This document shows positions 13,047-52,368 of a stretch of 64,000 nt of DNA, in pieces. The notes beneath the pieces were generated by a model. The model did no database searches, had not been told where the DNA came from, and saw only the letters and a program-made list of their open reading frames with translations. The stretch's first letter is position 1, and each line of letters starts with the position of its first letter. The translations under genes and the position numbers were made by a program. Origin of the DNA: Cyanidioschyzon merolae (taxonomy: Eukaryota); the NCBI GenBank assembly GCA_000091205.1, contig AP006493.2. One strand, written 5' to 3'.

Positions 13047-16000
13047 TGGTGCAGCCGGTCCTGGTTCGCGCCAAAGCGTAGCTAGATCTTTTGCATTCAC
13101 AGGACTGGTATGCTTCAGCTCATCGCGAGGTTTGCGCAGTGCTCAAGGACCACAGAGGACCTTGGTGTGCGTTAGTGATGCTTTGCGTGCATCTCGTCTT
13201 TTGGACTGGAGCCTTTTTCTGGGACGGACAGCCTCGCTGCATCAATGTTGCTGTTGAGCGGAGCAATCCGTGGCACACTCTGGTCTTGTATGATCGACGC
13301 TTGTAGGCAGGTCTCCTCTCGTGGTGCCAGCACGATCGCCGAGGGCACTTCAGCAACAAGGTCGTCTATTTCGTGGCGGTATTCTCGAGCACTCGACAGG
13401 ACCCGATAACTTGTTCCTGATACCGACACCCTGCTTTCCTTAAGCACATGCTCGTTTTTGAGAATGCGACATCTGCGTCTCTGGTGCTTTTTCGTGCAAT
13501 GTAGAATCTATGCATCTGTCGATAATTTTGCTCTGGAAATGCGCGCTCCGGCGTGGTGTTGATGCTGGTTAACAGGATCCGGTTTTTTATGTTGCAAAAT
13601 AAATGAGTCTGACCAGAACTCCACGAAGGTGCAATTGCTATTGCTAATCAGGCTAGACAACAGTGTCGCTCGTCAGGCACGCCCACCTTACCCAAACCCA
13701 GACCTGGATTTTCGTCGGGATTAGAGACGAGAACGATACCGTAATTCTTCGGATGCATGGTTACGTCCAGTGCGTGACGCTGTAATAGCAGTTTTATCTG
13801 GGTCCGCCTAGTCTCCTGCAGTCAACATCCGCTCACAGGGACCTGGTGTTCACCATCGCTCGCTCATTGCCCGAGACGCTCCGAGTGTATTGGCGAGCAG
13901 GTTTCCCCAGCATACATGTGCCAACCGCAATGCTCGTGAATCCACCGCCACAAGTAGATCAAGTGCAGCGACCTGGAGATCATCCTGCTCGATGAGCGAT
14001 GCTCCATTTTCAAGCTGATGGATCGCGATGGCTTGCTTTCTCGTTTCTTCAAAAATGTTAGGGATCGCTCGCATCTCGCTTTTGTTCAAACGAATGCCGT
14101 ATGCTCTGCATTATCCCGGATGAGCTAAGACGGGTTCCAAGCAGTCGGGTAGGCGCGTGTGCGTCTCCTGGGGTCCTTGGAAGATGCAAAGGCGCAAAAT
14201 CGCTCCTGCAGCGAAGCACGGTTGGTGACATTCATGTCCTTGCGCACGAAAGAGACGCACAAACCTGCAACGCCCTGGATACAACCCTGCTGCACAATGC
14301 TGAAACGTCCTGCTCTTGAACTCGAGCCGATTTCGTTGTGGCAATTGGCAACCCGGGTCCGCCTGAACGCAAGCAGCATTGTTGTTTCTCGACACTGCGG
14401 GATCAAGCTTCGAGTCGTGCTTGATCGACCATTCGGAAGAGCACAATGAGTGCGAACCAATCTGGCTGCTTGTTATCGAATCTATCGATCTGGGCATTCT
14501 ATCCAGGTCGTGCTTCGATTCGCAACCTGAGCGATTTGCTGAAAGAAAAGCGTCAGTTTCAGCGCACCGAACGAGAAGGGCAACGCATCCCAGATGCTTT
14601 ATACACACGGAATAATATCGAATAACGGAACACCGTTGTCGATCAGGTATTGCCCAGGAAACCCGTTCCAGGAGTGTTGATAAATAGACAACATTCGAGC
14701 CTTTCTGAATTTCCGGACAGTGCCACATCAGCTCCTGCGCTCATTCATGAAGCCAATACCCTCTATCCTGGCCACGAACGTTTCTCTCGCAAAGCTTCAG
14801 ATTTTCAGGGCAATGCCTGTGCTGCGTACGAAACCATTGCATGGAAAGTTCGCTCGACACAAAACTTCTGGACGCTCCGGACGCAAGAGATACTTCCAGA
14901 TATTGATTGAGGCATTCAAGTACAGGTGCAGAAAGTGCTTGTGTGCTTGGTTACTAGATGAATCACTACGTAGCAAGCCTCTCACTATCGTTTTCACCGC
15001 CATTTGACGTTAGCTCACATTACTGGACACCATACCTCGCATCCATCGCTATCTCACGCTTCCCTGTTCTACCAGTTTCAACATGCACCCGTGCTCTTGC
15101 TGCGTGTATGTCGTCTTGAAGCCATTGACGGCACTCGAGCGATGCCGATTCCCGCATTCGTTGTATGCTCTCGTCGATAGCGGAGGAGGTTTTGCTAGCA
15201 CGTTACAAAACGTCCAGTTCCATAGATTACTTTAAAAAAGACATGATTCATACCTCATTTCCATTTCAAAATCATTACAGGAAACGGAGAATAATCGGTT
15301 CTCGCCTCTGTACAACTGTAACTAGTGACGACACAGACACCGTCGTACGCTCTCCTGCCCGAGATCACCTGCATGAGCTATTTGAACACTCAAGTACATC
15401 CGGGATGAAGTACACAACGCACTTATCTCTGCTTGATAAGCTGCCCAGAGTTTCTAAATCGGCCTTGAAGTCGTCATACCGCCAGGCGGTATGCCTCCTG
15501 GCAACCAGAATGACCGACTCCAGATGATACAACGCTTTGGAACAAGAGCGCTGCTTCATCTGCTGTACATTCAGGTTGATGGATCGGTCCTCATGCGTTA
15601 TCGCGTTGGCGACGGTCGTGGTATTCATAGTCCCGGGATCCACGCTCATAACAAGTCGTTCTCTTGATCTGGATTCAACCCTTTTGAAAATGAGTCTTCG
15701 TGCTCAATTCAGACCTAGATTTTACAATGAATATGTAGAACGATATTCCATCCGCCCCTATGGTCCATGTAAACAAGAAAACTAAAACGAAATTCACCCA
15801 CGCGCTTCGCGAACTTGTGCCAATGCTTCGTGCTCGCTCGTCGAAACGAACACCCTCTTCTTTCCCTTTGCTCGGCCGGATGGTATGGATTTGGTCGTCG
15901 TACCTTTTTTTCCGTATGTTTGCCTTGTGATTCAGATGCACGAGACCAACGGTGGCAATGAACCTTGCCTTTTCTACGTATGTTTGTACCTGCAACGATT

Positions 16001-19559: not shown

Positions 19560-22500
19560 AAGAAAACAGTCCCGAAAGAGTTGATGTGGATCTGTGTGTA
19601 GAAGCAGGCGGTATCGTCTAGGGAAAGAAAAACGGAATTCGATGACGCGATTTGTCCAGCGTTGCGCGCGAGTCGCGAAACGTCGTCCTTCAGCTGAATT
19701 CCGTTCCATACCCGCTGCGTTGTATCACAGGAGATCGAAATCCGGATGCAATGTACTCTATAGATCGTGGACGAATTGCCTGAAGGACATATATTCCTTA
19801 CTGTACAGTGCAGGGGCGACTCTATTTCTCCTCCGGGTGAGCCTTAACACAGTATTCAGATGCGTGAGGAACGCGAAAAGAAAGAATCAGATGTGCTCCG
19901 CGTCGAAAACTAACATTCTCAGAGCGTGCTTGCGGTCAATGGTAGAAAACGGACCATTGATCACCGCATGGAGACCAAAAGCGACGAAAGCAGCTACCAT
20001 GGGTGTCTCTGTTTCTCAACAGCTTGTTCGCGTGGTCCTGAAATCACCCGGATAAAGTCGTAAAAATGTCCAATCTCATTCATAGCTATCATCTACCGAA
20101 ATTGCAGCGACAGCGTTCCTCGAACGTCGCTGTCGGTATAGAGCACAGGGACGTCGATTTGTTTATTCAGTCGATGATGGCTCCTTCGGATGACACGGTC
20201 GGAGCGTAGACGGGTATTCGCAGAGAAGGTGCCCGTTGAATGTGCGGTGGAACTCGAACAGAACGACGACATCAACTGTTCTGACTGCAGTGGATTCTTT
20301 TCCCAGCCTGAGTGTCGCTCATAGAAATGGATATGCAAGTCGAGGATCCCAGAGGCCCGGTGTCGCCTGCTGCCGGAAAACGGAAAGCTGTACCTAGCAA
20401 AGGGGAACAGGAGAAGACCAAGATGCAGAAGTAGGATGCGAAGCGTCAAAAGCAATTCGAAAGAAGACTGTATGACTAGACGGTGGTGGGAGCCTTGCTT
20501 CTAGGCGCTATCAAGGACCACTACCAGCGAGACTTGTAGGAGGCCATGAGAAACGTTTTCGTGTCTTACTCCAAGAAATGTATGTAACGCTTGTTTAGAA
20601 ATGAGGCATTTGGTCGAGTTTTACAATGACTCACGGACATCAACACAGTCGCGGTTCCGAAGGGATTTTTCAGCAGGATCTTCATTCGTCACCTGATGCT
20701 TGGAACAGGGAAATCTTCGACGAAAAATGAGGGAGTACATGCTCTCCAGCAAAATTACGCCCAATACCGCTTCAGCGGCATTCGAGACAGGGACGACTCA
20801 GATACTTACACGGATGATGCAATGAGGAACCTCACGCACCCGAGGAACTATATGATCGTGAAACTCGTAAGTTTCATGATACGCTGCATCATTGCGCTGT
20901 ACCCGGGCCTCTCTTGCAGTGGGATCCGGGCCATCATCAACGACATAGTACACGATCTCCGGAATGAACGGAAGATCGAAGTAGTCGACAAGAAAGACAT
21001 CACGCAGGAGAAGGAATGAAGCATCTGTTTCTCGTGCGACTATTCAAAAGTACCGTGCGGTTCTGGGGCTGGCGAATCCAGCAGAAAAGGTATCAGGTAT
21101 GAAAAAGGATGGTATCATCTCATCCTAAGCTACTTCGGATACCTGAACTGAGAACGAGTACGCCAGACAGAGATGGAGCTGAGTTCGGCGAAAAAATGAG
21201 TTGGAGAAACGGAAGGCTGCGCTTCTGGGGAAGCGCTTCAACGTCGTTCCGTTGTGCACCGTCAAGTCACACTCTGTGACTATCGACTCCAGAGTCCTTC
21301 ACGGCATCATGAAGAAAGAACGTTTCGAGCTCGATGTTAGCAACAAGGAATTCACGGGTGGAAACCAGGAGACGTACTGGAAGAGTATTTTCGATTTCAG
21401 ACGTCTCAAAATGAGCAAGAAAGAGGTACTCACTGGAGTAATCGAAATCGATGGAGCAGCCATGTGTGTACACTATCGGTGCTTCAAGGAGGCGGATCGT
21501 CCTGATCTGTCTTCGATATCGCACTTGGTGGAGCTTGAAGAAAACAAAGAGACGGATACTGCGACGCAGAAGGTACAGAAGAACGACTTTGTCATTGGCG
21601 CTGGTCCCGGGAACACGCAAATCGTTACCACGACTGCTCCCAAGTATGAGGAAGATGGCGCTGGTGGCAACTTGCGTCAGAAAGACATGCGACTTTTGAG
21701 GTTCTCAACAGCGAGATATTATCGAGAATCGGAAAAATGAATGTGAGGAAACAATTTGAGACATGGAATGCAGGAGTGAAAGCGCATTTGAGGCGATCAG
21801 CCAGGTGACTAGCCGTGGAGCGAGCTTTGGAGCTTTTCGGGTATTCATGAAAGTTAGCGTTCCTCACTGGAGAGCGCTGTAAAAAGAGTATACAAAGCCC
21901 CAGTGGGCTCGTCTGCGTGTGAATCTGTACTATGGGAAGCAGCGTACATTTGCCAACTTTTTCAATGAGTTGAGCGCCTTTAACAAGCACAAGGGTCAGA
22001 GGCTCGTAGTATCACAGCGAGCATGATGCTGGATGGCCCAAAAAGGGACTACGCCAGCTCCAACGTCAAGAACGTACAAGGAGTGTGCACGGCGTTTTGT
22101 CAGGATACCGATATGTGAGTACCGAACGTCATACGTGCACCATGAGCTGGGGTGTACACTTCAGAGGGTCGAGCGGGAAAAGTGCCAGCGGGCCCTGAGG
22201 ATCTGCTCAAGTACGGAGTGCTGACGGGGCAGGAAATGGCACGGATGGCATGTGTTCGAGGACTACTTGCATTGGTGATTACAACCAATGGCAAGAAACG
22301 TGTGGAGTTCTTGAACAGAGACTTGAACGCTGCTATCAATATAAGGAGATGTGCGGTGATGGAGAAGAGACCTGCAGCTCTAACAAGAGAGAATTTTGTG
22401 GGAGAACCTCTCAAGGTGGAATTATATTTGAAAAAGTTGAAACTAGAAGTAGGCGGCCGGTCCAAAAAGGCTGAAAGGCGTCATCGCATGGACGTCCATT

Positions 22501-22690
22501 TACTCTCCATGGTTATGATACATATTTGCTGCACTATCGGCGACCGGGCAGCTTGTGATAGCTTACGTCTCAGAGAGGCTTGTGAAGGTTGTAATACTGT
22601 TTTAAACTTTTTACTGGAAAGGTTTTCGGGGATCACTTGCGCAGTGCTTCGTTTTACGTGGAGCGATGAGTGCTTCTAGTGATCTCAGCC
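19560..22690 (+). pseudogene. Fanzor/TnpB-like RuvC nuclease gene relic (E2, the most complete copy). It has multiple frameshifts and a mutated RuvC-I aspartate.
   Basis: RuvC-I-like [19 protein letters not shown] at 21582-21626 (canonical GIDPG reads GAGPG; the D codon at 21603-21605 is ggt). This is followed by [14 protein letters not shown]. RuvC-II / Fanzor-type PICEYRTS is at 22108-22131. RuvC-III EFLNRDLNAAINI is at 22305-22343. The motifs lie in three different reading frames (ORFs 21201-21740, 22033-22224, 22152-22679), and no CxxC zinc ribbon is left. Confidence 0.5.
20005..20047 (+). other. Second copy of the conserved 43-nt block (pairs with 664-706).
   Basis: GTCTCTGTTTCTCAACAGCTTGTTCGCGTGGTCCTGAAATCAC. 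It sits in the 5' part of relic E2, and the surrounding homology to E1 begins near 19710. Confidence 0.35.
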
Positions 22691-23146: not shown

Positions 23147-23570
23147 GTTTGAGGAGGCATTCAAACTTTTTGACAAGGATGGTGACGGCAAAATCACCAC
23201 GAAGGAGTTAGGAACGATCATGCGCTCGTTAGGCCAGAACCCTACGGAAGCCCACTTACGCGAGATGATCGCCGAGGTTGATCAAGACGGATCAGGCACT
23301 ATCGATTTTGATGAATTCCTTGCGCTGATGGCAAGCAAGATGAAAGACATCGATACCGAGCAGGAAGTGCGGGAGGCATTTGCGGTTTTCGATAAGAACA
23401 ATGACGGCAAAATCAGCGCTGATGAGTTACGGGCGGTCATGCTGAAGCTGGGTGAGCGACTCACAGACGAAGAGATCGATGAAATGATTCGCGAAGCGGA
23501 TGCCGATGGAGACGGCTATATTGACTACCAGGAATTTTCGAACTTATTGCAATGGGATCAGCACACCTAA
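23147..23570 (+). CDS. Calmodulin-like EF-hand protein, 3' exon only. One or more 5' exons were not resolved.
   Basis: The ORF is open from 23118 and reads ...[35 protein letters not shown]...[13 protein letters not shown]...[14 protein letters not shown]...[14 protein letters not shown], which is about 70% identical to calmodulin. A CTGTAG acceptor lies immediately upstream at 23141-23146, there is no in-frame ATG, and an in-frame stop lies at 23115. Confidence 0.7.
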
Positions 23571-24735
23571 TCCACCGTCATTGATACAAGAGCCCTCTCG
23601 CCGGTGAAGACCATTGGTGACTGCATTGCGCAACACGCCATTCTCGCGTGACCATGGCATCTGGGCGCCAATCGGATTCCTTGTAGTGGGTGCTTATGCT
23701 TTATGTATGACTAGAATGGTGCTCGAGCGCTCCCGTGGTTACGCTGCGACACTAACCCCACCAGAGAGGGCGCCGAGCGCATACAGAGGTCACGCTGCTT
23801 ACTGTGCGCATTGGAGTCCTTGAACAAGGCCGCCTGCCACGCGATGAACACAGCGAAACGGTGTGTGAATTCTTCGTATCGTAAGACACGGTCAAACTAC
23901 CATGGTGCATCGAACATCGTGCTGAGCATGTTAAACTTCGGTAGAGACGGCGTCGAATGCATGGTTGATTCGAAAGTCGGCTGTTCCCGAATGCATCAAC
24001 GAGCAGTAGCAGCGCCTAAATGCGCCCAAAAGCGCTTGTTAGTCTACTTTGTGGTCTCAGTGTGAAGCATGGTGTCCCTAAACAATGATTGCTTTTATTG
24101 CTCTGACCTTTTTGTACGTTTCAACAACCAGGACCGTGCCCGCTTGCGGTACTGATCAGCAAAATTTCCTAATACAATGACCTGTGCCCAACGTGACAAC
24201 CTATTTGTTGTAGAGAGTCTGTAAATCGAACCCGGATGCTGTGGATGCACGAGTGCCGTCACGAAATGTGGAGGTTATAAACGTTCCCCCGTGCACTCGT
24301 TGACGTGTCTGGAGCTTCACAACGGGCGGCAACATCCCGAGTCTGTGCAGATGCCCGTCCGATTCGAAGAGCAGTTGCGACGCTGTGCGCTGCTCTTTGA
24401 ACATTCAGAATCTTAAAGACACGTAGAAGGAGTTTTTCGAGACTGCATGCCCGGAATGTGAGGAAAAACTCTTCAGCATTGAATTAGCAGGTCGACTAGA
24501 AATCAGAATAAAAGCGCTGCAAGTTCTTCCTGATGTGGAAAATCCCGAGATGCAGACAGGCAGCGACGTGGCCCATACTCCAACAACCAGCAGTGCATCT
24601 CGAAAGATTTCTGGTTTGATTCGTCCGCTCCATTTCATTGAAAGGGAAGGAGAGAGCTGAAGCATCCAAGCATGTGCGTTCTGTGACCGACTGCCGCATG
24701 GGGCCATCCTTCTGTCCTATATCCGTGATCTATTG

Positions 24736-26100
24736 GAAAGGCACATCGGACTGCACGCTTTGTTCATGCCCTGAGCGTTCTCTTCCAAAGTATCATTCGA
24801 TGTATCGTTGTGCTATTCAGAATTTGTAATGAGAGCTTACGGAATTTCGTGTGCAGTTGCAGGATTCTCGGTTGGTTTCCCGGGATGACGACTGCGATCC
24901 TCGGCAGACGGACTTTCTTATGTCGCTGGAATCCAGATGGATCGCGGCGTTTTACAACATGAGCTCCCTCCATAACCCTTATCAATAACATGTCCATACG
25001 AGAGAGTCTTCGCTCGTGTGCCTGCTCTCCGCTTTCCATGCTCAATCCACGCACTGTTCACCGTTTCGATCATGCTGTTTGACGGCAGATCGTCGGTGCT
25101 GCGCAACCGCACCGCTGCATGGTCAAGCGAGAATCCTCAAGGTCGACCTCCAACGATTCCTCCACAAGCTCATACGGGAACCGCTGTGAACTCGTCACGC
25201 CCATTGATCGATTCCGTTCCACATTCGAGTACGCTGCTCGTTGTAGCCAGACATGAGACAACGTTCGAGTGCAACATGATACCTGTCGCAGGATATGTAT
25301 CTAGAGGCTCCCTGTCGCTTCCGTCTGTACGCAGACGGATCTCGGACTCGGACGTCAAGCATCGCAGTGATCGCTTCCAGTGGAGCGTGCGTCACCGCTC
25401 AGTACGACAGGTGCAGTGACGCACCCGAGTTTCCCGGCCAGCGTACATGCCTGCTTTTTGGTTCCGCTGCTTGTCTCATCATGGACAAGAGCGCGGTCCA
25501 TAGATCCTTCACCGACGATGACGTCGAGCGGTTGTCTATGCAGCGGACATCGTCGTCGCTGCGGGAATCGCATATAGGGAGCACATGCTCGTGAGGCAAG
25601 GTACCTGGTGTGGACCCGGAGGCGTGCATTCGCGGAAGCCTTCTGTACCGGTCAACGGTACGCATCGTGCGATGAAGAAGGTGTTACCCTGCTCCAGTAC
25701 AGCGCGATGGAAGCGGAATACTGGCCAATATACTTAGAATGCGTGAATAGCCTCCAATTTCATGACGAAGAAGGTCACACACTGAGACTGTATACGAAGA
25801 AGATGCGAATGGCATGCGAAGCATAGATCGTTACGTTTTCCTGTGCGTGAAACGTTTGTACAGCAGCCAGGAGCAACGCCATGCGGCCTAGGACGCTGCC
25901 ATGAACACCCCTCGACGTCCTGAAACATATCTGGCGGGAGAAAGAAGACCGATCCATTTCAGGCTCGGAGATAAGAGGGAGCGATCGAGAGCAGTCGCAT
26001 GAAAAGCCCACAATGGTCAGTACTGATTACATCAGGAACTGTCCCAAGAATCCTTTTTTTGTTTTCGTCCTGGAGCACCCTTTGCATTTTAGTCTGACAT
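24736..26100 (+). repeat. Copy A of a 1.35 kb dispersed repeat family carrying a decayed DDE (rve-type) integrase core.
   Basis: Near-identical to 43001-44349 (direct) and 35404-36757 (inverted). On the minus strand it reads ...LRTDGSDREPLDTYPATGIMLHSNVVSCLATTSSVLECGTESINGRDEF (hSDnGsEF ... GI.H ... G.E..N with D-35-E spacing). A possible first-D motif LVHDETSSG lies about 52 aa upstream in another frame. Confidence 0.8.
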
Positions 26101-26318
26101 CGATATAGTAAACCAGAGACAGCAGGTTCACATACACAAAATGACATGACACGATACCCCTAGATGACGCATTGGGCTGCGACACTTCGCCAATGTTGCG
26201 CAGACGCTTCGCACGCTGCGCCTGTCGAAACCGACGTTTCGTCGTTGTCTGACGCAACGTCTCCCGAACCTGAGCAGCTCGCGCAGCTTATTCAAACTTG
26301 AGGGTGCGCTGACCGGCG

Positions 26319-27497
26319 ATGCGAGTTCCACGGTCTCAAGCCAGTGTTATCCGGCGCTGCTGGGTCACATTCTGGCCAGAGCGAGTTTTGCCTCACGCGC
26401 GGAGCGGCTGCGACGCGTGCGTCCAGCGCAGTGCTTTGCCCGTCTGGGGCAGACGAAGCATCTGGAACGCGCGACTCGGTCCCGCTGCTGCTTCTGCGTC
26501 TGCGTCACTATCGACGCTGGCGCGACGTCGCGTGCCTTCGCACTTTGGCTTCGTTATTGTGCCCCAGCAGTACGCTTATATTGTTCAGCGGTTCGGCCGC
26601 TTTAGTCGAGTGCTCGATCCAGGTCTACACTTTCTCATCCCGTTTGTGGACAAAATTGCTTACGTGCATTCTCTGAAAGAAGAGGCGGTATCGATCAACT
26701 CGCAGACGGCGATCACTCGAGACAACGTTACCATCGCAATCGATGGCGTCCTCTATGTTCGTGTCGTTGATCCGGCGAAAGCTTCCTACGGGGTCGAGGA
26801 TCCCTATATGGCTTTAACGCTACTAGCGCAAACAACCATGCGCTCCGAGCTCGGTAAGCTCTCCCTCGACAAGACCTTTGAGGAACGCGAAATGCTCAAT
26901 GCACGCATTGTGGACAGTATCAACGAGGCTGCTGCCGCCTGGGGTATGCAGTGTCTGCGGTACGAAATACGGGACATCAATCCGCCAGCGAACGTTCGCA
27001 AAGCTATGGAGTTGCAAGCGGAGGCAGAGCGTCGGAAGCGCGCTCAAATCTTGGACTCTGAGGGGGAAAAGGAATCCGAAATTAATGTCGCAGAGGGCCA
27101 AAAACGATCCAAAATTTTGAATTCAGAGGCGTTGCAACTGGAACAGATCAATCGCGCGCACGGTGAAGCAGAGGCAATACTCGCTAGAGCACGTGCAACC
27201 GCCCAGGCCATACGTATCGTAGCAGCCGAGATGCAACAGAAAGGTGGACGGGATGCAGTAGCACTGCGCATTGCCGAACAATACGTGCAAGCCTGGAGTA
27301 AGCTCGCCAAGGAAGGAAATACATTGATCATTCCAGCGAATATCAGCGATGTTCGTGGCATGATAGCACAAGCTTTTTCAGTCTGGGAAACCATGGGGAC
27401 GCAAACGTCGAATGCACGTGCAGCTCGTGCTGTGGTGTCCCCGGCGGCGGAGGATAAGGCCGCCCTAGTGGCCTCGTCGGAGCAGTCCGATAGCTAG
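26319..27497 (+). CDS. Stomatin-like protein 2 (SLP-2/STOML2-type SPFH/band-7 protein), probably mitochondrial.
   Basis: SPFH core VIVPQQYAYIVQRFGRF...LDPGLHFLIPFVDKIAYVHSLKE...TRDNVTIAIDGVLYVRVVDP...RSELGKLSLDKTFEERE...IRDINPP. The N-terminus is basic and S/R-rich, resembling a presequence. Confidence 0.8.
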   Translation: MRVPRSQASVIRRCWVTFWPERVLPHARSGCDACVQRSALPVWGRRSIWNARLGPAAASASASLSTLARRRVPSHFGFVIVPQQYAYIVQRFGRFSRVLDPGLHFLIPFVDKIAYVHSLKEEAVSINSQTAITRDNVTIAIDGVLYVRVVDPAKASYGVEDPYMALTLLAQTTMRSELGKLSLDKTFEEREMLNARIVDSINEAAAAWGMQCLRYEIRDINPPANVRKAMELQAEAERRKRAQILDSEGEKESEINVAEGQKRSKILNSEALQLEQINRAHGEAEAILARARATAQAIRIVAAEMQQKGGRDAVALRIAEQYVQAWSKLAKEGNTLIIPANISDVRGMIAQAFSVWETMGTQTSNARAARAVVSPAAEDKAALVASSEQSDS

Positions 27498-29119: not shown

Positions 29120-32100
29120 GTGTTGGACGGATCGGGACGATGCGCAGTTTTTGGTATAAAGGGAGTTGCTCGCGAACCGCAGTACTTTATCTATCTCGGA
29201 AAGACTACACAGAGGGGGACTCGTTTTTGTTTCTGGGTTTATTATAGGACGATAGTGCCCCGCAAACCTCTCGTTTCACGGTGTTGCGTGTGCAGGCTGG
29301 GTTCTGCATCACCAGGGATGACTCCGGAAACCTCAACGCAACGCGCACACACAGAGGGCCGTTCCCCTGCGGAGGTCGTTAGTGGAGATGACGGAAACGG
29401 ATGCCCAGGTAATAATAGTTCGGCGTCTGTGTTTGAGGAAGCTATCCGTGTCGAGAAACCGCCTGCGCCTTTCGAAGCGCTCGAAACAGCAGCAGCCTCT
29501 CGCGGTTTAGGCGCGCTGACCACGGGGACCAGCACTGAGACTCCGTCAACGGCACCCGCGGGAGCTGGCCGTCCGGAAGAACACTCGGGCACCGCCTCTC
29601 GAGTAGGGGCGCTCGGGGAACGCCAGAGTTGGCCGGCTCGCGGTCCCGGGGTTCCCAACGCTCGTGGCGTCGTAGGCGCTGGCACGACCACGGCGGCACG
29701 AATGCACACCCTGGGACGCGGCGGTCGTGTTGTTGTCCAGCAGCCATCGTCATCCGCTGAACAGAATGCCAAACCCGATGTTCGCTCGGAGAGCGCTGAC
29801 ACCCCCAAAGCGACCACGGCTGTAGCTGCAGCCGCTATGCTCAAAGCATCTCGGAATGACACTGGTGACCGCACAGCGATCCCTTCCACGGGGCCTGTTG
29901 TTCGCAGCGCTCAACAGGCCGCATGGAGCAGACAACGCTCTGTCCCGGACCCGGCAAGAAATGCTACCGGAAGGATATTCTCGAGAGCTACGCAAGGCGC
30001 GTCGGCGCGATCTGCCACACCGACTAGTGATTTCCCTGCGCTTGTGCGGGAGAACCCTACGCAATCGAAGCCGTCTGCAATGCAACAGCGGAAACCTGAT
30101 GAGAGTGCTGCGCAGCTGCGACCTGTCGCTGCTGCACAGGATTCAGCACGGCGAGGGCAGCATCCGCTGGGTACTGTGTCACGAAATCACACCGAATCGG
30201 GGCACGTTCCAAAGGCGATTCCATCGCCCCTACAGCTCACGGACTGGAGTGAGGATCCAGATGAGGAAATGAACTTTAGTGTCCCATTGGACCAACGTCT
30301 CGCTGTACCTGGAATGAAACCGCTGACGCGTCCGGCACAGAAGGACTCTCTGAGAGAAGCGCAGTCCCCCACGACCGATAGTGCAACCATTTCAACACGT
30401 GCGATCGGTGGATTCGACTGGACTGATTCGGACAATGACGAAGGAAAGGCGGTGCCATCGGACGACAATGAGGCATCGAAAAATGACATTGCATCTGAGG
30501 TTGCGACGGGAACAGCAACAACAGCGAATGTGGAGAACGCGGACGGACGTCAGGGTGCTGCGTTCGTTGAGTCGGACGAGTACCAACAGCAGCACCAGCA
30601 GCAGCAGTCGCAACCGATCGCAGTGGGTACAAGGCGTCCAAATATTCAACCGAGTCTGTCCAAAGAAAAGATGCAAGTCGATTTGGAGGAAATCTCGAGA
30701 GAATTGCACCTCCTTGAAGAGCAGCGCGAGCTTGCGAAACAGAAAGCCGCCGAACGTGCTCGGCAACGTAGAGAAGAAGAAGAGCGTATGGAGAGGGAAC
30801 GCAAGGAAAGGGCAGCACTCAAACTTCGCCAGCTCGAGGAACGAATTGCAGCGAAGAAGGCAGAAAAGGCGACTGTGAAGGAGCGGACCACTCCAGAGCA
30901 TCAAGCTGCTAGAACAGATTCAGTCAAAGCCGCTGACCTTGGCAAAGATCGAAAGCTGCCAGCCGCTCGAATTGACCGAGCAATCGCTTCCGCCCAGAGT
31001 GGAGGGCCTGCCTCCTCCGCATCAGCGTCGGAGAAACCATATCCGCTCGAGCAGGTGCGACGAGATGATGCGTCTGCGGGTGATACGCGAATAACCCGAA
31101 CGGAGCATGCTACCGAAGCGGGATCACGCTCGGCAGCGCGCAATACACAGCAAAGAGTACGACGCGCGCCGCTCACGGAAACCTGGTCCCAAGAAGAGCA
31201 GCACACACGCGGACGTGCCACTGCCTCAGCAGGTGTGAGAGGCACCGCTTCTGCTGTCCCCGCATGTGATCGGTCCTCGCTGGATCGTAGCAGAGCCACG
31301 GCATCTGGCGCATCCAGTACGAATTTGGATCAGAGCAGACGGCAACGCCGCCAGGGCGCACCTCGCGGGCAACTCAGCAAGAGTGATGAACCAAGAGAAC
31401 GCAGTGACTCAGCTTCTGCTTCAGGGTCGACGAGCCGAGACAAGACGGCGACTGAGCCAGAGGGTCCAAAGATCGAATCATCGGTGCGCGGGAGCCGGTC
31501 TCGAACGAGCGCCCCATGGGGGCGTGCAGGCCCTGCCTCGAAGCCTGGCAAGCGGAACGATCGCGAAGGGGCTCCTTCAGAAGCAGCCCTGTCGGAGCAC
31601 GTGCAGCCTCTATCGCTGGAGGACGCTTCGCTGCCTTCGAGCCCGCCACCGACGTGGTTCACCATGCCCGATACCATGGCGGACGAGGAAGAACCGACGG
31701 TGAGATCGCCCTGGGCAGCGTCAAGTCCCGCTCTGACACCAGCGGCAAGTGCGACCGGTGTTGCACCAAAGTCCGCCGACGAACTGGACAAGTGGCAGCT
31801 GCCGAGCTACCCGAAACCGTCGTTCGAGGATATCTCGCGAGCATTTGCTGCTGCAGGGCCGGTGGTTGCAAGCCCTGCTTCGACCGCATACGGCTTGGCG
31901 GAGCTTTACGGATCGAGCGTTTCATCCCAGAGAGTCCCAGTGGAATCGAAAGCGTCGCTGGTGTCAGCACGGCGCCCCGGCGCGCTCCAAGACGAGCGAG
32001 AATTGGAGGCCCCCAAGCGGGATACGAGCCGTTCAAGTCCGGGAACGCAACGCGGAACGCTGAGTGAGCGCACGTTATCTGAACCGGACGCAACCGCGGC

Positions 32101-34189
32101 GGATCCTGCGCAGCACCATCTGAGAGTATCATCTGATGTAGCTGTAGCAACCACTGCGGTTTCACAGCTATCGCTCAGTGCCGATGCCGACAAGACCCTA
32201 ACGAAAGAGATCCCCTTCCATTCCGATTTACGCACGGATGCGCCCGAATTCGTGCCGTTTATATCGTACGGTGGCTTTGGCACATCTGCATTCCCAGTAC
32301 CACAGATGAGCCCGACGTTCTTTTCAGCTCCGTACGGCGAGGCGACGCGGTCGGATCTATATCCTTTACCAGCTTATATGCAGCCTGCTGACTGGGGCAC
32401 AGCGTCTGCCGGCGATACGATCGACATGCACCATCTCAGTTCTGGTGGCGAGGCGGCTGTACCCACAAGGACAGTGAGGCAGCGTGCGCCCCCAGAGGAC
32501 GACGATGAGGATCTCGCAGCGGCGGCGATTTCGTCGGCGCTCGGCGAGCGGCGCCAGCATCGTGGCGGCAAGGGCGTCACCGCAGGGCGACACGCTGGAA
32601 CCAGCAGTGCGCCTGGACGAACGCGGCAGCGCCCGACGATTGCGGCCAGCACGGAAGTATTTCGGGCCAACAGGGGGCGTCACCGGACTGGGATGGGTGT
32701 GGGCGCTTCTGGCACCGATGGAACGCTTGCCAAGCCACAGCGCTTCGTGTCCGAGGATCGCGAAGCGCCCTCGCACTCGGAAGCTTCAGCAGCATCAGCA
32801 TCAGCATCAGCATCACGTCTGGAGCAGGAAGCAACGACTCCGATGGCACGTTCTGGACAGCAACAGCGGACCGCAGATTCAAACACGAGCGCCAGCACGG
32901 AGCTGCAAACGAGGCGGCGGTCTCCTGGGCTGCGAACGAGTAGCAACAGCAGCAATGTGCGCTCTGTGCAGGATGTGCGCTGCGAATCCAGGCGTGGTAC
33001 TGCTGCTCCTACTACTACTACTGCAACGCAATCGTCGCCGGGGGAGAATCTGAAAGCTGCGGACGATGAGAGCGCGCAACGTTCGGAACCTGCGCCAGCT
33101 CTTTCAGAACAGCAGAGCGGGGCTGCTGCATCCGATGCAAGAGCCGGTGTGCAAACGCGAAAGGTAACCACAGGCGTGAATAGACTCAAGGCTGTGAAGC
33201 CATCTCGGCCCGCAACCGCGAACAAGTCGGCAGCAAACGCACTAGAACCAACAGCGGGTACCGGAACGGCCGATCGGAACGGCGAAGACGCCCTGGCACC
33301 AGCGACGACGAAGCGCGGCAAGTATTGCGACCGCAACGCTGGTGCCGATGGGAAACGTCGCGAACGATGGACAAGCCGACCGCGTCCACGAAGCATGCGC
33401 GAAGGGCGTTCGCGGAGTACCGCTTCCGTTACGGGTGCTGCTTCTGCAGCGACAACGGAGCCGAAGACGGCTACAGCCTTGGACACCGCAGTCAAGATGT
33501 TGCCGTTCGAGGTCAGTGGAACACGCACACCATCGCCAGTGCAGCGGGAGCAGCAGAAGCAAGAAGCGGTGCCTGAAGCGCCAACTCGAACGTCTCCAGC
33601 GGCGGAGGGCGCTCCCAAGGCGCTTGTCACGCCAGCTGATCCCGCTGAGGATCCGAAAACGCCTGCCAAAGACCAGCGGACTCGTGAGGCAGGCTCATCT
33701 GACGCGAGGGTATCAACGACGACGCCACCATTATCATCATCAGCGTCAGCATCAGCGTCGTTGTCGTCGAAAGAGCAAGGAGCCGCCAATGCGAAAGCAA
33801 CCGCCGCTACGGGCCAAGAAACGAAACACGAGCATTCGGCTTCTCGTCGACACTCGCAACGAAAGCTGCACCCGCGACAACGTCAACAGAAGCATCGCTT
33901 CCGGAACCGGACCAATGCAGGCAGCGAACAAGTCGAAAGCTCAGCGCGCACCATGCAACCCGAGCCTGCACCAACCGGAAACGATCGTTCTTCCGCGAAC
34001 GACGAGCATCGTGCGAGCTTCAAAAACGTCGATGTTGTCCCAGTTGCTGGCGCTTCCCTTGCACAACCAAAGTTCAAGCTGTCAACCGAGAGCGCAGTCG
34101 CTTATCGCCGAGTCGAGGCGAACGCGTCTCCGAGGCGTGCTCTGCGACAATTTCGCGAAAAGGTCAGCGAGGACGCCAAAGACGCATGA
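29120..34189 (+). CDS. Very large low-complexity (Ala/Ser/Arg/Thr-rich) protein of about 1624-1689 aa with a central charged coiled-coil-like helix.
   Basis: A 5 kb uninterrupted ORF; a likelier start is the ATG at 29318 (MTPETSTQ...). The charged segment is EEQRELAKQKAAERARQRREEEERMERERKERAALKLRQLEERIAAKKAEK. Poly-Q/H and poly-S/A tracts come from CAG/CAT/GCA repeats. Long antisense ORFs are attributed to GC content. Confidence 0.5.
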   Translation: MLDGSGRCAVFGIKGVAREPQYFIYLGKTTQRGTRFCFWVYYRTIVPRKPLVSRCCVCRLGSASPGMTPETSTQRAHTEGRSPAEVVSGDDGNGCPGNNSSASVFEEAIRVEKPPAPFEALETAAASRGLGALTTGTSTETPSTAPAGAGRPEEHSGTASRVGALGERQSWPARGPGVPNARGVVGAGTTTAARMHTLGRGGRVVVQQPSSSAEQNAKPDVRSESADTPKATTAVAAAAMLKASRNDTGDRTAIPSTGPVVRSAQQAAWSRQRSVPDPARNATGRIFSRATQGASARSATPTSDFPALVRENPTQSKPSAMQQRKPDESAAQLRPVAAAQDSARRGQHPLGTVSRNHTESGHVPKAIPSPLQLTDWSEDPDEEMNFSVPLDQRLAVPGMKPLTRPAQKDSLREAQSPTTDSATISTRAIGGFDWTDSDNDEGKAVPSDDNEASKNDIASEVATGTATTANVENADGRQGAAFVESDEYQQQHQQQQSQPIAVGTRRPNIQPSLSKEKMQVDLEEISRELHLLEEQRELAKQKAAERARQRREEEERMERERKERAALKLRQLEERIAAKKAEKATVKERTTPEHQAARTDSVKAADLGKDRKLPAARIDRAIASAQSGGPASSASASEKPYPLEQVRRDDASAGDTRITRTEHATEAGSRSAARNTQQRVRRAPLTETWSQEEQHTRGRATASAGVRGTASAVPACDRSSLDRSRATASGASSTNLDQSRRQRRQGAPRGQLSKSDEPRERSDSASASGSTSRDKTATEPEGPKIESSVRGSRSRTSAPWGRAGPASKPGKRNDREGAPSEAALSEHVQPLSLEDASLPSSPPPTWFTMPDTMADEEEPTVRSPWAASSPALTPAASATGVAPKSADELDKWQLPSYPKPSFEDISRAFAAAGPVVASPASTAYGLAELYGSSVSSQRVPVESKASLVSARRPGALQDERELEAPKRDTSRSSPGTQRGTLSERTLSEPDATAADPAQHHLRVSSDVAVATTAVSQLSLSADADKTLTKEIPFHSDLRTDAPEFVPFISYGGFGTSAFPVPQMSPTFFSAPYGEATRSDLYPLPAYMQPADWGTASAGDTIDMHHLSSGGEAAVPTRTVRQRAPPEDDDEDLAAAAISSALGERRQHRGGKGVTAGRHAGTSSAPGRTRQRPTIAASTEVFRANRGRHRTGMGVGASGTDGTLAKPQRFVSEDREAPSHSEASAASASASASRLEQEATTPMARSGQQQRTADSNTSASTELQTRRRSPGLRTSSNSSNVRSVQDVRCESRRGTAAPTTTTATQSSPGENLKAADDESAQRSEPAPALSEQQSGAAASDARAGVQTRKVTTGVNRLKAVKPSRPATANKSAANALEPTAGTGTADRNGEDALAPATTKRGKYCDRNAGADGKRRERWTSRPRPRSMREGRSRSTASVTGAASAATTEPKTATALDTAVKMLPFEVSGTRTPSPVQREQQKQEAVPEAPTRTSPAAEGAPKALVTPADPAEDPKTPAKDQRTREAGSSDARVSTTTPPLSSSASASASLSSKEQGAANAKATAATGQETKHEHSASRRHSQRKLHPRQRQQKHRFRNRTNAGSEQVESSARTMQPEPAPTGNDRSSANDEHRASFKNVDVVPVAGASLAQPKFKLSTESAVAYRRVEANASPRRALRQFREKVSEDAKDA

Positions 34190-34249
34190 TCGTCGTTTAT
34201 CTCAATTGCAATGCACCTCCAGATGGGTGTCATCAAATGCCTCTTCGCG

Positions 34250-34830
34250 GTTTACAGCAGATGCGTTTGAAATGCGTTCATTTTGAAGAATAAAAAGTCC
34301 CATGGAAAGGTATGCACATGGAGGTCGAAGATCCCGGACGACCACGATCGTCGCCTATCAAACGATACCCAAAAGAAATCCTCTTCTCACGGACCATCGA
34401 GCGAAGGAGAAGAAGAAGAACAGGAAGGAGTAAGCGAGAAGAGGTGTTTGTCCGACGGAATGGCAACGAGACCGCGGTGGTACGGAGGGCACGATTTCGA
34501 TGAATGCTCGCATCGGCAAGATCCACCAGCTGCAGATCATACATGGAGTTCGTGAACCGAGACTTGAACGTCCCCATCAATATCAGGAGATGTGCGGTAC
34601 CGAGGACGTGACCTGCGGTGCTGACGCGATCGAATTCTGTGGAGCAGTGTCTCAGACTCGAGGTGCTCAAGGAGAAAAGCACTGGGAGGCGTCTGCGGGT
34701 GGCTATTCATTTACCCGACACGGTCGTAGAACATTTTGGTGTTTCACGTATCGAGTGCGCAGCAAGCAAGTCACGTTCAAAGCACAGACGTTGCAGTCGA
34801 GCGATGCTTCATTCGGCCGCTGAAGCGAAT
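34250..34830 (+). pseudogene. The 3' fragment of a Fanzor/TnpB-like relic (E3).
   Basis: RuvC-III remnant MEFVNRDLNVPINIRRCAVPRT* at 34543-34584 and onward. It is nucleotide-homologous to E1 1340-1600 and E2 22290-22460 and carries stops and indels. Confidence 0.4.
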
Positions 34831-35403
34831 CAGCCTTCAGCAGCTGCCGAGTCCTCAATCCCATACCCGCACACGAGCGACTGCTGCATATGGTGTTTCG
34901 GTGGCGGCGGACAAGCTTCTCGGGCGGGAGTTTCTGTGCACTAGGGCTGCGTGAGTAGCGCCGCCGGGGCGTAAAACCTTTCCGCAGCACCACGTGATGG
35001 GAATCATTTCAAGAATCTGGCTTTCAGGTAACGCTTGATGGGGGTTTCACGAGACCCGCTGCTTTCTTTGTGGGTGCATTATGCCAGTCTGCAGGATGCG
35101 GCTCTATCGGTGTCCCGATGTGCTGCAGTTTTGACCGGCGGTGCCTGCGTTCGGTACGAATATGGGGCGCTGCGTGCCCGGGAGCGCACGAACCTGGACG
35201 CTGTGGGGCTGCTTCCTCGCACGCCGTTGAACAAGCTCGCCGAACACGCCACTGGATACGAAGACGCTGGTGCTGTTGCTGCTGATTGCGTGCGGGGATT
35301 CACCTGATCTTCGTTAGACGCGATCGGAAGGTTACATGCCGATATTCGTGCGGGTGCGACCTCGTATTCCAGTCGTCGTCGTCGTTACGCATATTCTAGA
35401 AAG

Positions 35404-36757
35404 AAATGCAAAGGGTGCTCCAGGACGAAAACAAAAAAGGATTCTTGGGACAGTTCCTGATGTAATCAGTACTGAGCATTGTGGGCTTTTCATGCGACTG
35501 CTCTCGATCGCTCCCTCTTATCTCCGAGCCTGAAATGGATCGGTCTTCTTTCTCCCGCCAGATATGTTTCAGGACGTCGAGGGGTGTTCATGGCAGCGTC
35601 CTAGGCCGCATGGCGTTGCTCCTGGCTGCTGAACAAACGTTTCACGCGCAGGAAAACGTAACGATCTATGCTTCGCATGCCATTCGCATCTTCTTCGTAT
35701 ACAGTCTCAGTGTGTGACCTTCTTCGTCATGAAATTGGAGGCTATTCACGCATTCTAAGTATTTTGGCCAGTATTCCGCTTCCATCGCGCTGTACTGGAG
35801 CAGGGTAACACCTCCTTCATCGCACGATGCGTACCGTTGACCGGTACAGAAGGCTTCCGCGAATGCACGCCTCCGGGTCCACACCAGGTACCTTGCCTCA
35901 CGAGCATGTGCTCCTTATTTGCGATTCCCGCAGCGACGACGATGTCCGCTGCATAGACAACCGCTCGACGTCATCGTCGGTGAGGGATCTATGGACCGCG
36001 CTCTTGTCCATGATGAGACAAGGAGCGGAACCAAAAAGCAGGCATGTACGCTGGCCGGGAAACTCGGGTGCGTCACTGCACCTGTCGTACTGAGCGGTGA
36101 CGCACGCTCCACTGGAAGCGATCACTGCGATGCTTGACGTCCGCGTCCGAGATCCTTCTGCGTACAGACGGAAGCGACAGGGAGCCTCTAGATGCATATC
36201 CTGCGACAGGTATCATGTTGCACTCGAACGCCGTCTCATGTCTGGCTACAACGAGCAGCGTACTCGAATGTGGAACGGAATCGATCAATGGGCGTGACGA
36301 GTTCACAGCGGTTCCCGTATGAGCTTGTGGAGGAATCGTTGGAGGTCGACCTTGAGGATTCTCGCTTGACCATGCAGCGGTGCGGTTGCGCAGCACCGAC
36401 GATCTGCCGTCAAACAGCATGATCGAAACGGTGAACAGTGCGTGGATTGAGCATGGAAAGCGGAGAGCAGGCACACGAGCGAAGACGCTCTCGTATGGAC
36501 ATGTTATTGATAGGGGCTATGGAGGGAGCTCATGTTGTAAAACGCCGCGATCCATCTGGATTCCAGCGACATAAGAAAGTCCGTCTGCCGAGGATCGCAG
36601 TCGTCATCCCGGGAAACCAACCGAGAATCCTGCAACTGCACACGAAATTCCGTAAGCTCTGATTACAAATTCTGAATAGCACAACGATACATCGAATGAT
36701 ACTTTGGAAGAGAACGCTCAGGGCATGAACAAAGCGTGAAGTCCGATGTGCCTTTCC
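35404..36757 (-). repeat. Copy B of the 1.35 kb repeat, in inverted orientation.
   Basis: It is the reverse complement of copy A. It has the same frameshifted integrase remnant (MTSASEILLRTDGSDREPLDAYPATGIMLHSN...ECGTESINGRDEF on the plus strand here). It shares with A the extra 18 bp GGAAAGGCACATCGGACT at one end, and about 13 bp at the other end are diverged or truncated. Confidence 0.8.
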
Positions 36758-37631
36758 ATCGATGACCAGCGAAACGATAAATGTTTGGCAACCATTGGGT
36801 ATATTAGCATCGACTCGCAGACGCCTCCTAGCCTTTTTGCCGAGGGATATTGTGTGCTATCTTTTTCAGTTTCCCCTTGTGCTCGCATCCAGGCTTAGCG
36901 TCGTTCCCAGAGTGTTTGGTCGTCTCGGTACCTCGGGTCTCGTGCTTTGCGCAGCAAATCGTCTGATATTGATAGCAGCGCTGGAGCCTCGGTTCACGAA
37001 ATTCTTGCATGCATTTTTCTGGTTGTACGCTCTATTGCAAAGATTCCCAGAACTTGTACCCTCCGCACCACTACAGTCTCATCATCGTCCAGTCGAGCAA
37101 GCACCTCCTCTCGTCCACTTCCCCTTCTTCTTCTTCATGACTTGCTCTACGTGCTGGAACGTCGGCGAGAACAGGATTTTTCGTATCCTTTTGCGACAGC
37201 AGGCGGCACCGGCTTTCCAGGATACTCGACTTCCGCGTCCATCCCATTCCCTCATACTTTTATTTCATCAAATAAATGAACCTGGAACGCATCTATTATA
37301 AACCACGAAAAAGCATTTGATGACTCTATGCCAGAGGTGGATACCATAGACGTGAAAGACTGTCATCTTACGGGGGGTGTCGGCCGCTGCGCTCGATGAC
37401 GGTTACGTGCAAAAGGCTTTTTGTCGCTCTTTTGTGGAATACTCGTTCGCTATGATGAAACCAACGTGATTATGTCAGTTCTGCTGCTGATTCAAGTCTA
37501 CAGGAAGAAACGTTCACGTGGACTGAGCAACAAGAGCGAGTATTCCTAGTTCAAGGGTTTACCTGGTCTCCGTCGCAGACTGATCTCGGGGACGATACAC
37601 TTCGCTAACGAGCAAGCTCTGTAGCGATCTG

Positions 37632-39260
37632 ATGCAGCGCACCCGATCTCTGGCTGCTTCCGTCCAAAGTCTCGCCAGATCTCTTCGAAGTAAGCAACTG
37701 CGTCCCTACCAAAAGGTGACGCAGCACGCAAACCGGGTAGAAACGGTGTCACTCGGGTCACTGAGCTACTGTGCAAGCGTCGTCACGCGATACCTCTGTA
37801 GCGCTGCACAGAAAGCCGCTGGGGCCGCGGGCACGCGGCCAACCATTTACGCCCTGGCGACTGCACCAGGAACAGGCGCTATAGCAGTATTCCGGATCAG
37901 CGGCCCCGAGACCCGACAAGTACTGCAGGCGGTGCTCCATGTGCCTGCGCAAAAACTTCCGCAACCACGGCAGCTCGTTCCGCGGACGCTCTATGATCCG
38001 CAGCGCAACTACGCTTTCGACCGCGGTATGGTCGTCTGGTTTCCGGCACCAGCATCATACACCGGAGAGGATATGGCGGAGTTGCAGGTGCACGGAGCAC
38101 CAGCGGTCATTCGTGCAGCGCTTGTTGCACTGGCGGGATACCCAGGCCTCGTCCCTGCTACAGCGGGCGCTTTCACCAAAAGAGCGCTTACGAATGGCAA
38201 AATGGACCGATCTCAGGTGGAGGCGCTAGCTCATATCATCCAGGCGGATTCTCTCGATGGGCTTGCCCTGGCGGTGAATAACTTGCAAGGAGCGCTTCGC
38301 AGCCAGCATCATTCTTGGCGAGCGCACCTGCACGCAGCGATGGCGATCATGGAGGCGGTGCTTGAATTCGGAGAGGAGCACCTCGCACACGAAATAGACG
38401 CACAACTGGAGCAAGCAGCGCAGCGTATACGGGCTGTGCAGGCAGAGATGCGCATGCAGATTCGTCTCGCGAGTCCCGAAGGTCAACGACCGGAACTGAG
38501 CCTGACGCCACGCATCGTGCTGTACGGGCGAGTGAATGCGGGCAAGAGCAGTCTATTTAACTTGATAGGGCAACGGGAGGCCTCTATTGTGCACGAGACT
38601 CCAGGAACAACTCGAGATGTCGTTGAGCAGAGAGCATACATCGACGGGCTTGCCGCAACCATCATGGACACAGCGGGGCTGCGTGAGACGCCGCAAACCG
38701 CCAGTGCGATTGAAGCCGAGGGCATTCGTCGAGCCCGAAAAGTCATTGAACAGACGCCGCTGCGAGTGCTCGTGGTAGACGCAAGCACAGAGGAAGAATG
38801 TTCATTGGAGCATGACCCAACTGCGGCATGGTTGCCCAGTGCTGTGGTGCTCCACAAAGCAGACCTAGTCCCTGATCATCAACAGCGCGAGGCGTTGAGG
38901 AATCGCTTTTCACGCTGTTACCGAGAGTCTGATCTGTTTTTCGTATCCTCCCGAACAGGCGAAGGGGTCGATGCTTTTCTGAACTGGCTTGGCGAGCGGT
39001 TACGCGCAAGATTCGAATGTGCAAAGGATACAGATCAACGTCGCTGTCTCATTCAGACGCAACGTCAGCATGCACTCCTAAGAGTTGTCCATGATCTGCT
39101 TGACGGTGCTTTGCAGCATCTCATCGTGCCAGAGCTTGCGGTAGAGCATCTTCGTTCGAGTCTACAGCACTTGGCGGAGATATCAGGAGAGGGCGATCGG
39201 CGCTTCGATGCCGAGGATACTCTTGAGCATATCTTTTCGCGCTTCTGTATCGGCAAGTGA
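37632..39260 (+). CDS. mnmE: tRNA modification GTPase MnmE/TrmE (mitochondrial MSS1/GTPBP3 type).
   Basis: An N-terminal tetrahydrofolate-binding domain, a G domain (GRVNAGKSSLFN, ...DTAGLRE, HKADL) and the hallmark C-terminal CIGK. About 70 aa of basic N-terminal extension is consistent with a mitochondrial presequence. Confidence 0.85.
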   Translation: MQRTRSLAASVQSLARSLRSKQLRPYQKVTQHANRVETVSLGSLSYCASVVTRYLCSAAQKAAGAAGTRPTIYALATAPGTGAIAVFRISGPETRQVLQAVLHVPAQKLPQPRQLVPRTLYDPQRNYAFDRGMVVWFPAPASYTGEDMAELQVHGAPAVIRAALVALAGYPGLVPATAGAFTKRALTNGKMDRSQVEALAHIIQADSLDGLALAVNNLQGALRSQHHSWRAHLHAAMAIMEAVLEFGEEHLAHEIDAQLEQAAQRIRAVQAEMRMQIRLASPEGQRPELSLTPRIVLYGRVNAGKSSLFNLIGQREASIVHETPGTTRDVVEQRAYIDGLAATIMDTAGLRETPQTASAIEAEGIRRARKVIEQTPLRVLVVDASTEEECSLEHDPTAAWLPSAVVLHKADLVPDHQQREALRNRFSRCYRESDLFFVSSRTGEGVDAFLNWLGERLRARFECAKDTDQRRCLIQTQRQHALLRVVHDLLDGALQHLIVPELAVEHLRSSLQHLAEISGEGDRRFDAEDTLEHIFSRFCIGK

Positions 39261-42963: not shown

Positions 42964-43000
42964 CGCTGAGGACAGTGTCAGATGAACATGTGATACTGAG

Positions 43001-44349: not shown

Positions 44350-44471
44350 ATGGTTGCATCAACGCCGAGCCATCTCGCCATGAGACAACTGCGGGCAACC
44401 AGCCGCGGCGTTTTGGCAGTTTGGCGCACTGGGTACGCTCCGCGCAGTCTCCTCGGGAGAAAACTACGGAT

Positions 44472-52242: not shown

Positions 52243-52368
52243 GCGTTTGTTGATGTCCGTATTATACATGAATGTCGCTGTTGAGAAGGTCGAATCACGA
52301 TCGGTGCGTTTGTTTATGTCCGTACTATACATGAATGTCGCTATTGAGAAGGTCGAATCACGATTGCT
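52243..52368. repeat. Tandem duplication (2 x 63 bp) in the bidirectional intergenic region between the two CAP paralogs. A (CGAAC)5 tract also lies at 52551-52576.
   Basis: Unit gcgtttgtt[g/t]atgtccgta[t/c]tatacatgaatgtcgct[g/a]ttgagaaggtcgaatcacgat. The two units differ at about 5 positions. Confidence 0.7.

Follow-up and report, generated by a model that had tools for sequence, protein, structure and literature searches.

The window analyzed here, a 64,000-nucleotide stretch of DNA, is part of chromosome 11 (852,849 bp) of the red alga Cyanidioschyzon merolae 10D, and the ORFs flanking the repeats described below are exact matches to the C. merolae 10D entries BAM80572 and BAM80575 to BAM80582 (CMK locus tags). 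Using a repeat search and a three-way alignment, we located three near-identical units of about 1.35 kb, which we refer to as copies A (positions 24734-26100, + strand), B (35404-36758, inverted), and C (43001-44352, + strand). Pairwise identity among them was 98.5 to 98.7%. All three are intergenic. Copy A lies between the calmodulin gene (23220-23570) and a stomatin-like gene (26319-27497), copy B between a 1623-aa gene (29318-34189) and trmE (37632-39260), and copy C between CMK225C (41366-42079) and CMK227C (44472-45983). A preliminary description made from the letters of the window had reported three such copies, the middle one inverted, and this was borne out, as was its statement that they share their frame disruptions: the same stops and frameshifts occur in A, B, and C. 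All six reading frames are rich in stops, with no open stretch exceeding 147 codons. We also looked for a larger duplication with continuous flanking homology and found none; the best flank-to-flank local alignments were at chance level, and the flanking DNA of the three copies is unrelated. At the left end, A and B carry about 18 nt of similarity that C appears to lack, and at the right end A and C share 11 nt that B appears to lack.

Several other features of the window were recorded. An ATG-initiated ORF of 307 codons (42040-42963, + strand) overlaps the end of CMK225C and stops 38 nt before the near-identical block of copy C. Its exact sequence did not occur in the protein collection, nor did Pfam give a match; the locus tags around it skip from CMK225C to CMK227C. 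Across the 1623-aa hypothetical gene BAM80578, positions 30001-34000 have an AT skew of +0.23, the coding strand being A-rich relative to T. Two divergent ORFs (50742-51899 on the minus strand and 52804-53859 on the plus strand) are distant paralogs with about 30% amino acid identity over 129 residues, and Pfam assigns a CAP (cysteine-rich secretory protein) domain to the former. Between these two CAP-domain genes lie two adjacent 59-nt units (52243-52301 and 52306-52364) that are 95% identical and whose starts are 63 nt apart.

To characterize the distribution of the 1.35-kb unit, we searched for relatives with an nhmmer DNA profile built from A, B, and C. The sample consisted of nine unrelated loci of about 20 kb each (168 kb) from hot-spring metagenome strains of Cyanidioschyzon, all of which were reached via paralogs of one ORF in a neighboring repeat family (equated below with CMe-1A). 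Relatives were present in seven of the nine loci, with E values ranging from 1e-44 to below 1e-170. Five were full length (L038 1569-2918, L039 17394-18751, L041 14628-15918, L042 11287-12642, and L044 18907-20296), one was truncated (L043 9133-9900), and one was internally deleted with both ends kept (L045 13285-13749, minus strand, with model positions ~418 to 1341 missing). Deletion derivatives of cut-and-paste transposons usually take this form. The relatives were diverged (52 to 60% identical), and pairwise identity between family lineages was 53 to 60% in a star-like pattern, with indels mostly of 1 to 2 nt, and the 9-mer GTCTGACAT was confined to the right ends of family members. With the window included, the density comes to 10 copies in 232 kb, an estimate that is biased because the loci were all reached via the neighboring repeat family. 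Since relatives occur in seven of nine other loci, a density of three copies in 64 kb is nothing out of the ordinary for the family; the trio stands out by its near-identity.

Other searches returned little. When metagenome DNA was scanned with a 22-mer, nothing beyond the three orthologous loci was retrieved, and no copies were found in the bacterial and archaeal genomes and viral contigs scanned. The 183-aa ORF of the L038 copy had no homologs, and the unit had no match in Rfam, either at the gathering score or at E ≤ 1, or in a tRNA scan. Every family copy examined was dead, and no intact transposase was seen. About 3 kb from the truncated family member, at L043 5767-6141, there is a fragment matching RVT_1 (reverse transcriptase), which presumably belongs to the non-LTR retrotransposon relics that have been reported from this genome.

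The family's coding capacity became legible through a consensus built from diverged copies. We derived a majority consensus of eight sequences, one of them being the consensus of A, B, and C, and found that a single frame, which runs along the + strand in A and C, is interrupted by only three stops over approximately 420 codons. The protein read from this frame matched Pfam DDE_3 (PF13358) at 32.4 bits (gathering score, 28.6; E = 1e-7). It also matched the NCBIfam profile transpos_IS630 (NF033545) with an E value of 5.6e-14 over profile positions 22-238 of 299, at 52 bits, which is under the equivalog cutoff of 100. Individual copies gave weaker matches: a single L038 frame reached DDE_3 at E = 9e-4, and the frame-corrected + strand of A did so at E = 0.18, in the same register and not significant alone. 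At the N terminus, there was a weak match to Pfam HTH_33 (E = 0.04 to 0.11), and the IS630 alignment begins at profile position 22, consensus residue 27. The consensus retains motifs for the first catalytic D (IDET) and the second (IMDN). The profile matches end just past the second D, where the following YSP... stretch is garbled, and neither the third catalytic residue nor the C-terminal third of the profile could be recovered. We tested the substitutions between family members for codon periodicity and obtained a negative result, which is expected from decay after insertion and is therefore no argument against a coding ancestor.

When the rebuilt protein was aligned to the window by tblastn, residues 16-414 were collinear with each of the three copies. 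In copy A, the decayed transposase frame spans 24846-26048 (+) in four pieces (24846-25106, 25108-25311, 25313-25990, and 25968-26048), and its three frameshifts and roughly seven in-frame stops all recur in B and C. A putative remnant of the N-terminal helix-turn-helix (CRILGW...TFLCRWN) lies at 24858-24932 (+). The region of the first catalytic D (25234-25266, +) reads LLVVARHETTF against a consensus of FVAIDETAF, the D having been replaced by H in all three window copies. The region of the second catalytic D lies at 25472-25507 (+), where CLIMDKSAVHRS corresponds to CFIMDNIAFHKS in the consensus.

The preliminary description had instead proposed that the broken frames spell an rve-type catalytic core, i.e., that of a retroviral or LTR-retrotransposon integrase. 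The two enzymes are related in kind, as both rve integrases (PF00665) and the transposase described above are RNase-H-fold DDE recombinases, and it is true that the unit holds a frame-disrupted relic of that superfamily. The peptides quoted in support of the proposal (LVHDETSSG, LRTDGSDRE, GIMLHSN, and GTESIN) also exist as strings on the minus strand of A, and the distance from the second candidate D to the candidate E approximates a D-36-E spacing. The family, the strand, and the motifs, however, were not those of the actual enzyme. In Pfam, neither the six frames with stops masked nor two frameshift-corrected stitches of the proposed frames had any match at E ≤ 10, and one stitched version had no match among PDB sequences. 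A concatenate of the six frames had no match at E ≤ 0.01 among 5.8 billion proteins. When the 73-aa frame running from LRTDGSDRE to GTESIN was searched with full HMMER against 1.84 billion representatives, no integrase was recovered; its three matches were artefacts from internally repetitive proteins, in which ten repeats of a CLTSESEIRYTTDGSEPT-like motif inflate the score. In the diverged member L038, RTDGSD and GTESIN are replaced by HTKQRV and PVDSMT, so that neither the candidate second D nor the candidate E is conserved. We found no LTR-like direct terminal repeats and no long inverted repeats within or around the copies, nor any sign of a zinc-binding N terminus, and the C. merolae genome was reported to contain no LTR retrotransposons (PMC1955436). 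The family consensus has its open frame on the opposite strand. LVHDET simply arises from the true second-D codons (25472-25507) when these are read as their reverse complement, and the remaining motifs are antisense to noncatalytic parts of the gene, in reverse order. Because no integrase-core HMM matched after frame correction, the rve reading is refuted, and we consider it scarcely credible. Motif spotting on short broken ORFs had thus chosen the wrong strand and the wrong enzyme family, a tempting misreading that the family consensus corrects.

The limits of the near-identical blocks had been taken as the ends of the element, which also proved wrong. Alignment of A to seven members and the consensus repeat placed the full element at 24720-26105 (+), with TA at 24718-24719 and 26106-26107; the nhmmer envelope for A, from a model that includes 60-nt flanks, was 24676-26160. 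Copy B extends over 35388-36771 (-), with TA at 35386-35387 (its right end) and TT in the left flank, and copy C extends over 42970-44354 (+). The left 30 nt of C (GTGTCAGATGAAC...) are a family-typical terminus and not flank. True ends thus lie 5 to 35 nt outside the near-identical block. The remark that two copies share 18 extra terminal base pairs holds for A and B at the left end, but the third copy, C, does not lack an end there; it has a family-type terminus in that place. Since the true ends lie outside the near-identical block, the "extra" terminal bases mark the limits of homogenization rather than presence or absence.

Boundary alignment also revealed terminal inverted repeats. The consensus inverted repeat, CAyCCrTGTCAGAnnAAAAnGGAAC, has 20 matches in 26 positions in a fixed register (20,000 shuffles: mean, 7.3; maximum, 17) and is preceded by T[A/G]. 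In copy A, the left inverted repeat (24720-24750, +; TATCCGTGATCTATTGGAAAGG) is decayed, and the right one (26075-26105, +) ends in ...CATTTTAGTCTGACATCGATA, with the core TCTGACAT kept in A, C, and L038 and present as TCTGATAT in L039. Inverted repeats of single copies were marginal (8/300 for B and 21/300 for L038). TA stood in the expected register at both flanks of A; across the family, it was found on the left in three of nine copies and on the right in four of ten, the old copies being heavily decayed. The anticipated terminal inverted repeats were therefore found at the level of a 26-nt consensus, whereas TA target-site duplication is clear for A only. A solo LTR, a Helitron, and a 3' fragment of a non-LTR element were each raised from the end sequences and were dropped given the inverted repeat and the transposase.

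Together, the size, the single gene with a DDE domain and a putative helix-turn-helix, the inverted repeats, and the TA flanks point to assignment of the family to IS630/Tc1-mariner. Known elements of this group resemble the window family in their size of about 1.4 kb, in having one transposase gene with a DDE_3 core and, apparently in the window family too, a helix-turn-helix at the N terminus, in inverted repeats of roughly 26 nt beginning with CA, in their TA flanks, and in giving rise to internal-deletion derivatives with both ends kept. The window family differs in that every copy seen is dead, that the reconstruction yielded no third catalytic residue and lacks the C-terminal third of the profile, that a TA duplication is clear at one copy only, and that its score is below the NCBIfam equivalog cutoff (52 versus 100 bits). 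With the classification resting on an eight-sequence consensus, A, B, and C appear to be decayed IS630/Tc1-mariner-type transposons, a fairly ordinary case. The family is ancient and apparently common. As its consensus shows, the ancestral element was about 1.4 kb long and carried one transposase gene of about 420 codons (DDE_3 core and a putative helix-turn-helix) between inverted repeats of about 26 nt, probably with TA target-site duplications.

Why three such relics should be nearly identical is a separate matter, and the termini are informative in this respect. The interior that is about 98.5% identical in all three copies covers 24751-26089 (+) in A, 35404-36741 in B, and 43001-44338 in C. 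Outside it, the outermost 13 to 35 nt on the left and 5 to 17 nt on the right differ among A, B, and C as much as they do between unrelated family members. In the left 30 nt, C is identical to A at 13 of 30 positions, as compared with 15 to 21 of 30 for C against other family members. The last 11 nt of B are unlike those of A and C, and A and B also differ in their outermost 13 nt. The trio consensus is about as distant from the family consensus (70% identity) as single copies are (71 to 76%), and its GC content is slightly higher, at 53.1% versus 48 to 51.5% in single copies.

Strains from hot-spring metagenomes provided a second line of comparison. In strains about 99% identical to 10D, the copies were at the same loci wherever this could be checked, with no empty site observed. 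Some variants are shared between copies across strains. The right end of C reads TAGTCTGACAT, as in A, in 10D, L018, L019, and L027, and CTTTCTCTTAT, as in B, in L020-L025. The variant GTCCTAGAGC is common to B in L001 and C in L020-L025 and is absent from all three copies in 10D, and the same applies to sites 25998 and 26027-28, where B and C of other strains have variants in common that the 10D copies lack. These comparisons rely on metagenome assemblies in which some contigs end inside the repeat and may be chimeric between paralogs; variants adjoining unique flanks are less exposed to such chimerism than those on contigs that end inside the repeat. Across L001-L027, which come from C. merolae-like strains in more than ten hot-spring metagenomes, contigs are interrupted inside the three copies or right at them. 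Between calmodulin and CMK227C no assembly crosses a copy, so inversions or deletions between copies would go unseen.

From these sequence comparisons, we consider it probable that A, B, and C are three old IS630/Tc1-mariner copies that were inserted independently and whose interiors were homogenized by nonallelic gene conversion. Under this scheme, the three elements would most likely have inserted long ago, within 20 kb of each other, and their interiors would have been kept or made about 98.5% identical by conversion, while the outermost 5 to 35 nt escaped homogenization and retained family-level divergence. Every lesion common to the three copies would then reflect sequence copied between them rather than a broken unit that transposed. 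We infer that conversion would have been sustained while other copies of the family diverged by 45%. The preliminary description had argued that the unit multiplied after its enzyme was inactivated and had listed gene conversion as one of the means; that option is the best supported, whereas mobilization in trans, which it had also listed, is disfavored by the differences in the outermost nucleotides of the inverted repeats. C. merolae has efficient homologous recombination. Ectopic gene conversion of dispersed repeats, as seen for yeast Ty elements and duplicated genes, offers a parallel: the trio is alike in having a sharply bounded inner block of near-identity, older divergence toward the edges, strain variants shared among paralogs, and one copy in inverted orientation. 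It differs in that the converted sequences are dead transposons, 7 to 18 kb apart in a compact algal genome.

It is possible that the near-identity instead reflects recent movement, i.e., that one decayed IS630-like copy was mobilized in trans and inserted three times within 20 kb. Such an account would explain three copies of a discrete unit, about 98.5% identical and with unrelated flanks, and the TA found at either end of A; Tc1-mariner elements typically hop locally. A recently mobilized unit would have identical termini, however, and those of A, B, and C differ at family-level divergence over the left 13 to 35 nt and the right 5 to 17 nt. The left inverted repeat is decayed in A and B, as is the right one in B. 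The presence of the copies in all sampled strains wherever assessable, with no empty site, and the lack of any intact transposase among the copies seen also speak against it, and we regard recent transposition as unlikely. Segmental duplication, in which one old copy was duplicated twice by nontranspositional means, appears less probable still. With three copies only, the staggered limits of homology (A and B on the left, A and C on the right) would fit two independent copy events from A. Yet the near-identical blocks end within 5 to 35 nt of the family termini at both ends, and no flanking DNA was coduplicated. Because C on the left and B on the right bear family-type termini unlike those of A, copies of the family were already present at the B and C sites.

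Selection on the homogenized interior as a functional noncoding element (an RNA, for example, or a regulatory module) is a further alternative. Most of the old copies are full length and contain some well-conserved islands, and both transcription and H3K27me3 marking have been reported for repeats of C. merolae (PMC1955436, PMC5405695). The unit nevertheless lacks an Rfam match even at E ≤ 1, its copies take no consistent position or orientation relative to neighboring genes, and the divergence of the family is star-like with no constraint beyond that of a decaying consensus. We therefore judge a noncoding function to be highly improbable. Independent insertion followed by gene conversion remains the reading that we favor.

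The window also contains a second, abundant repeat of about 3 kb, whose degenerate copies (65 to 77% DNA identity) lie at 343-1802, 14845-15009, 19683-22489, and 34229-34728 (+) and at 36907-37324 (-). One of its ORFs (22152-22679) has at least 50 paralog clusters in Cyanidioschyzon metagenomes. Two fragments of this repeat flank B as an inverted pair, and it is also found upstream of A. The second repeat fits Fanzor1 CMe-1A of C. merolae (Bao and Jurka 2013, PMC3627910), which is the same as the "WSV486 repeat" (Nozaki et al. 2007, PMC1955436). CMe-1A resembles the 1.35-kb unit in being old, dispersed, and decayed and in occupying the same intergenic stretches, but the two are separate families. 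We considered whether the 1.35-kb unit was part of CMe-1A and rejected this, as they have no DNA similarity and no termini in common. In its 5' part, the second repeat contains a DDE_3/IS630-like remnant of its own (L038 8597-9013; E = 2e-5 in Pfam, which does not reach the gathering score, and E = 0.008 for the IS630 profile of NCBIfam), with homologous DNA in the window at 538-1357 and 19751-20300. That remnant was rejected as a relative of the 1.4-kb family transposase, since BLASTP showed no similarity to the consensus protein. The remnant hints that CMe-1A, which was reported as unclassified, may perhaps be of IS630/Tc1-mariner type too, judging from these profile matches.

Transposon relics have been described in this genome before. 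The genome analysis by Nozaki et al. (2007, PMC1955436) reported eight class II transposase-related elements that are closest to bacterial transposases. A later annotation with EDTA listed 1755 class II elements (bioRxiv 10.1101/2022.10.24.513474), and MITE Tracker found no MITEs in C. merolae. Like both of these class II sets, which come from the same genome, the window unit is a relic of a DNA transposon, and its best matches are to bacterial-type IS630. The window family is far denser than the eight elements, with the 10 copies coming from a biased sample. Neither the genome paper nor the EDTA study contains a matching description of the 1.4-kb family, and none was found elsewhere in the literature searched. 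Should the biased sample be representative, there would be about one copy per 20 to 25 kb, which would amount to several hundred copies occupying a few per cent of the genome. It is conceivable, if rather doubtful, that this family is among the most abundant repeats of the "transposon-poor" C. merolae genome, undescribed as such, and that the trio records long-term concerted evolution.

The mechanism, the type of family, and the mode of homogenization are all of known kinds, and knowledge of how such transposons work is unchanged. For C. merolae itself, our results suggest that decayed IS630/Tc1-mariner relics are much more common than the "eight class II elements" would indicate and that neighboring relics exchange sequence. 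This bears on repeat annotation in C. merolae, on the reading of its H3K27me3 or "TE" tracks, and on the risk of inversion or deletion between such repeats. If long-term concerted evolution of the trio is true, these three dead transposons would offer a natural readout of ectopic gene conversion in an alga with efficient homologous recombination.
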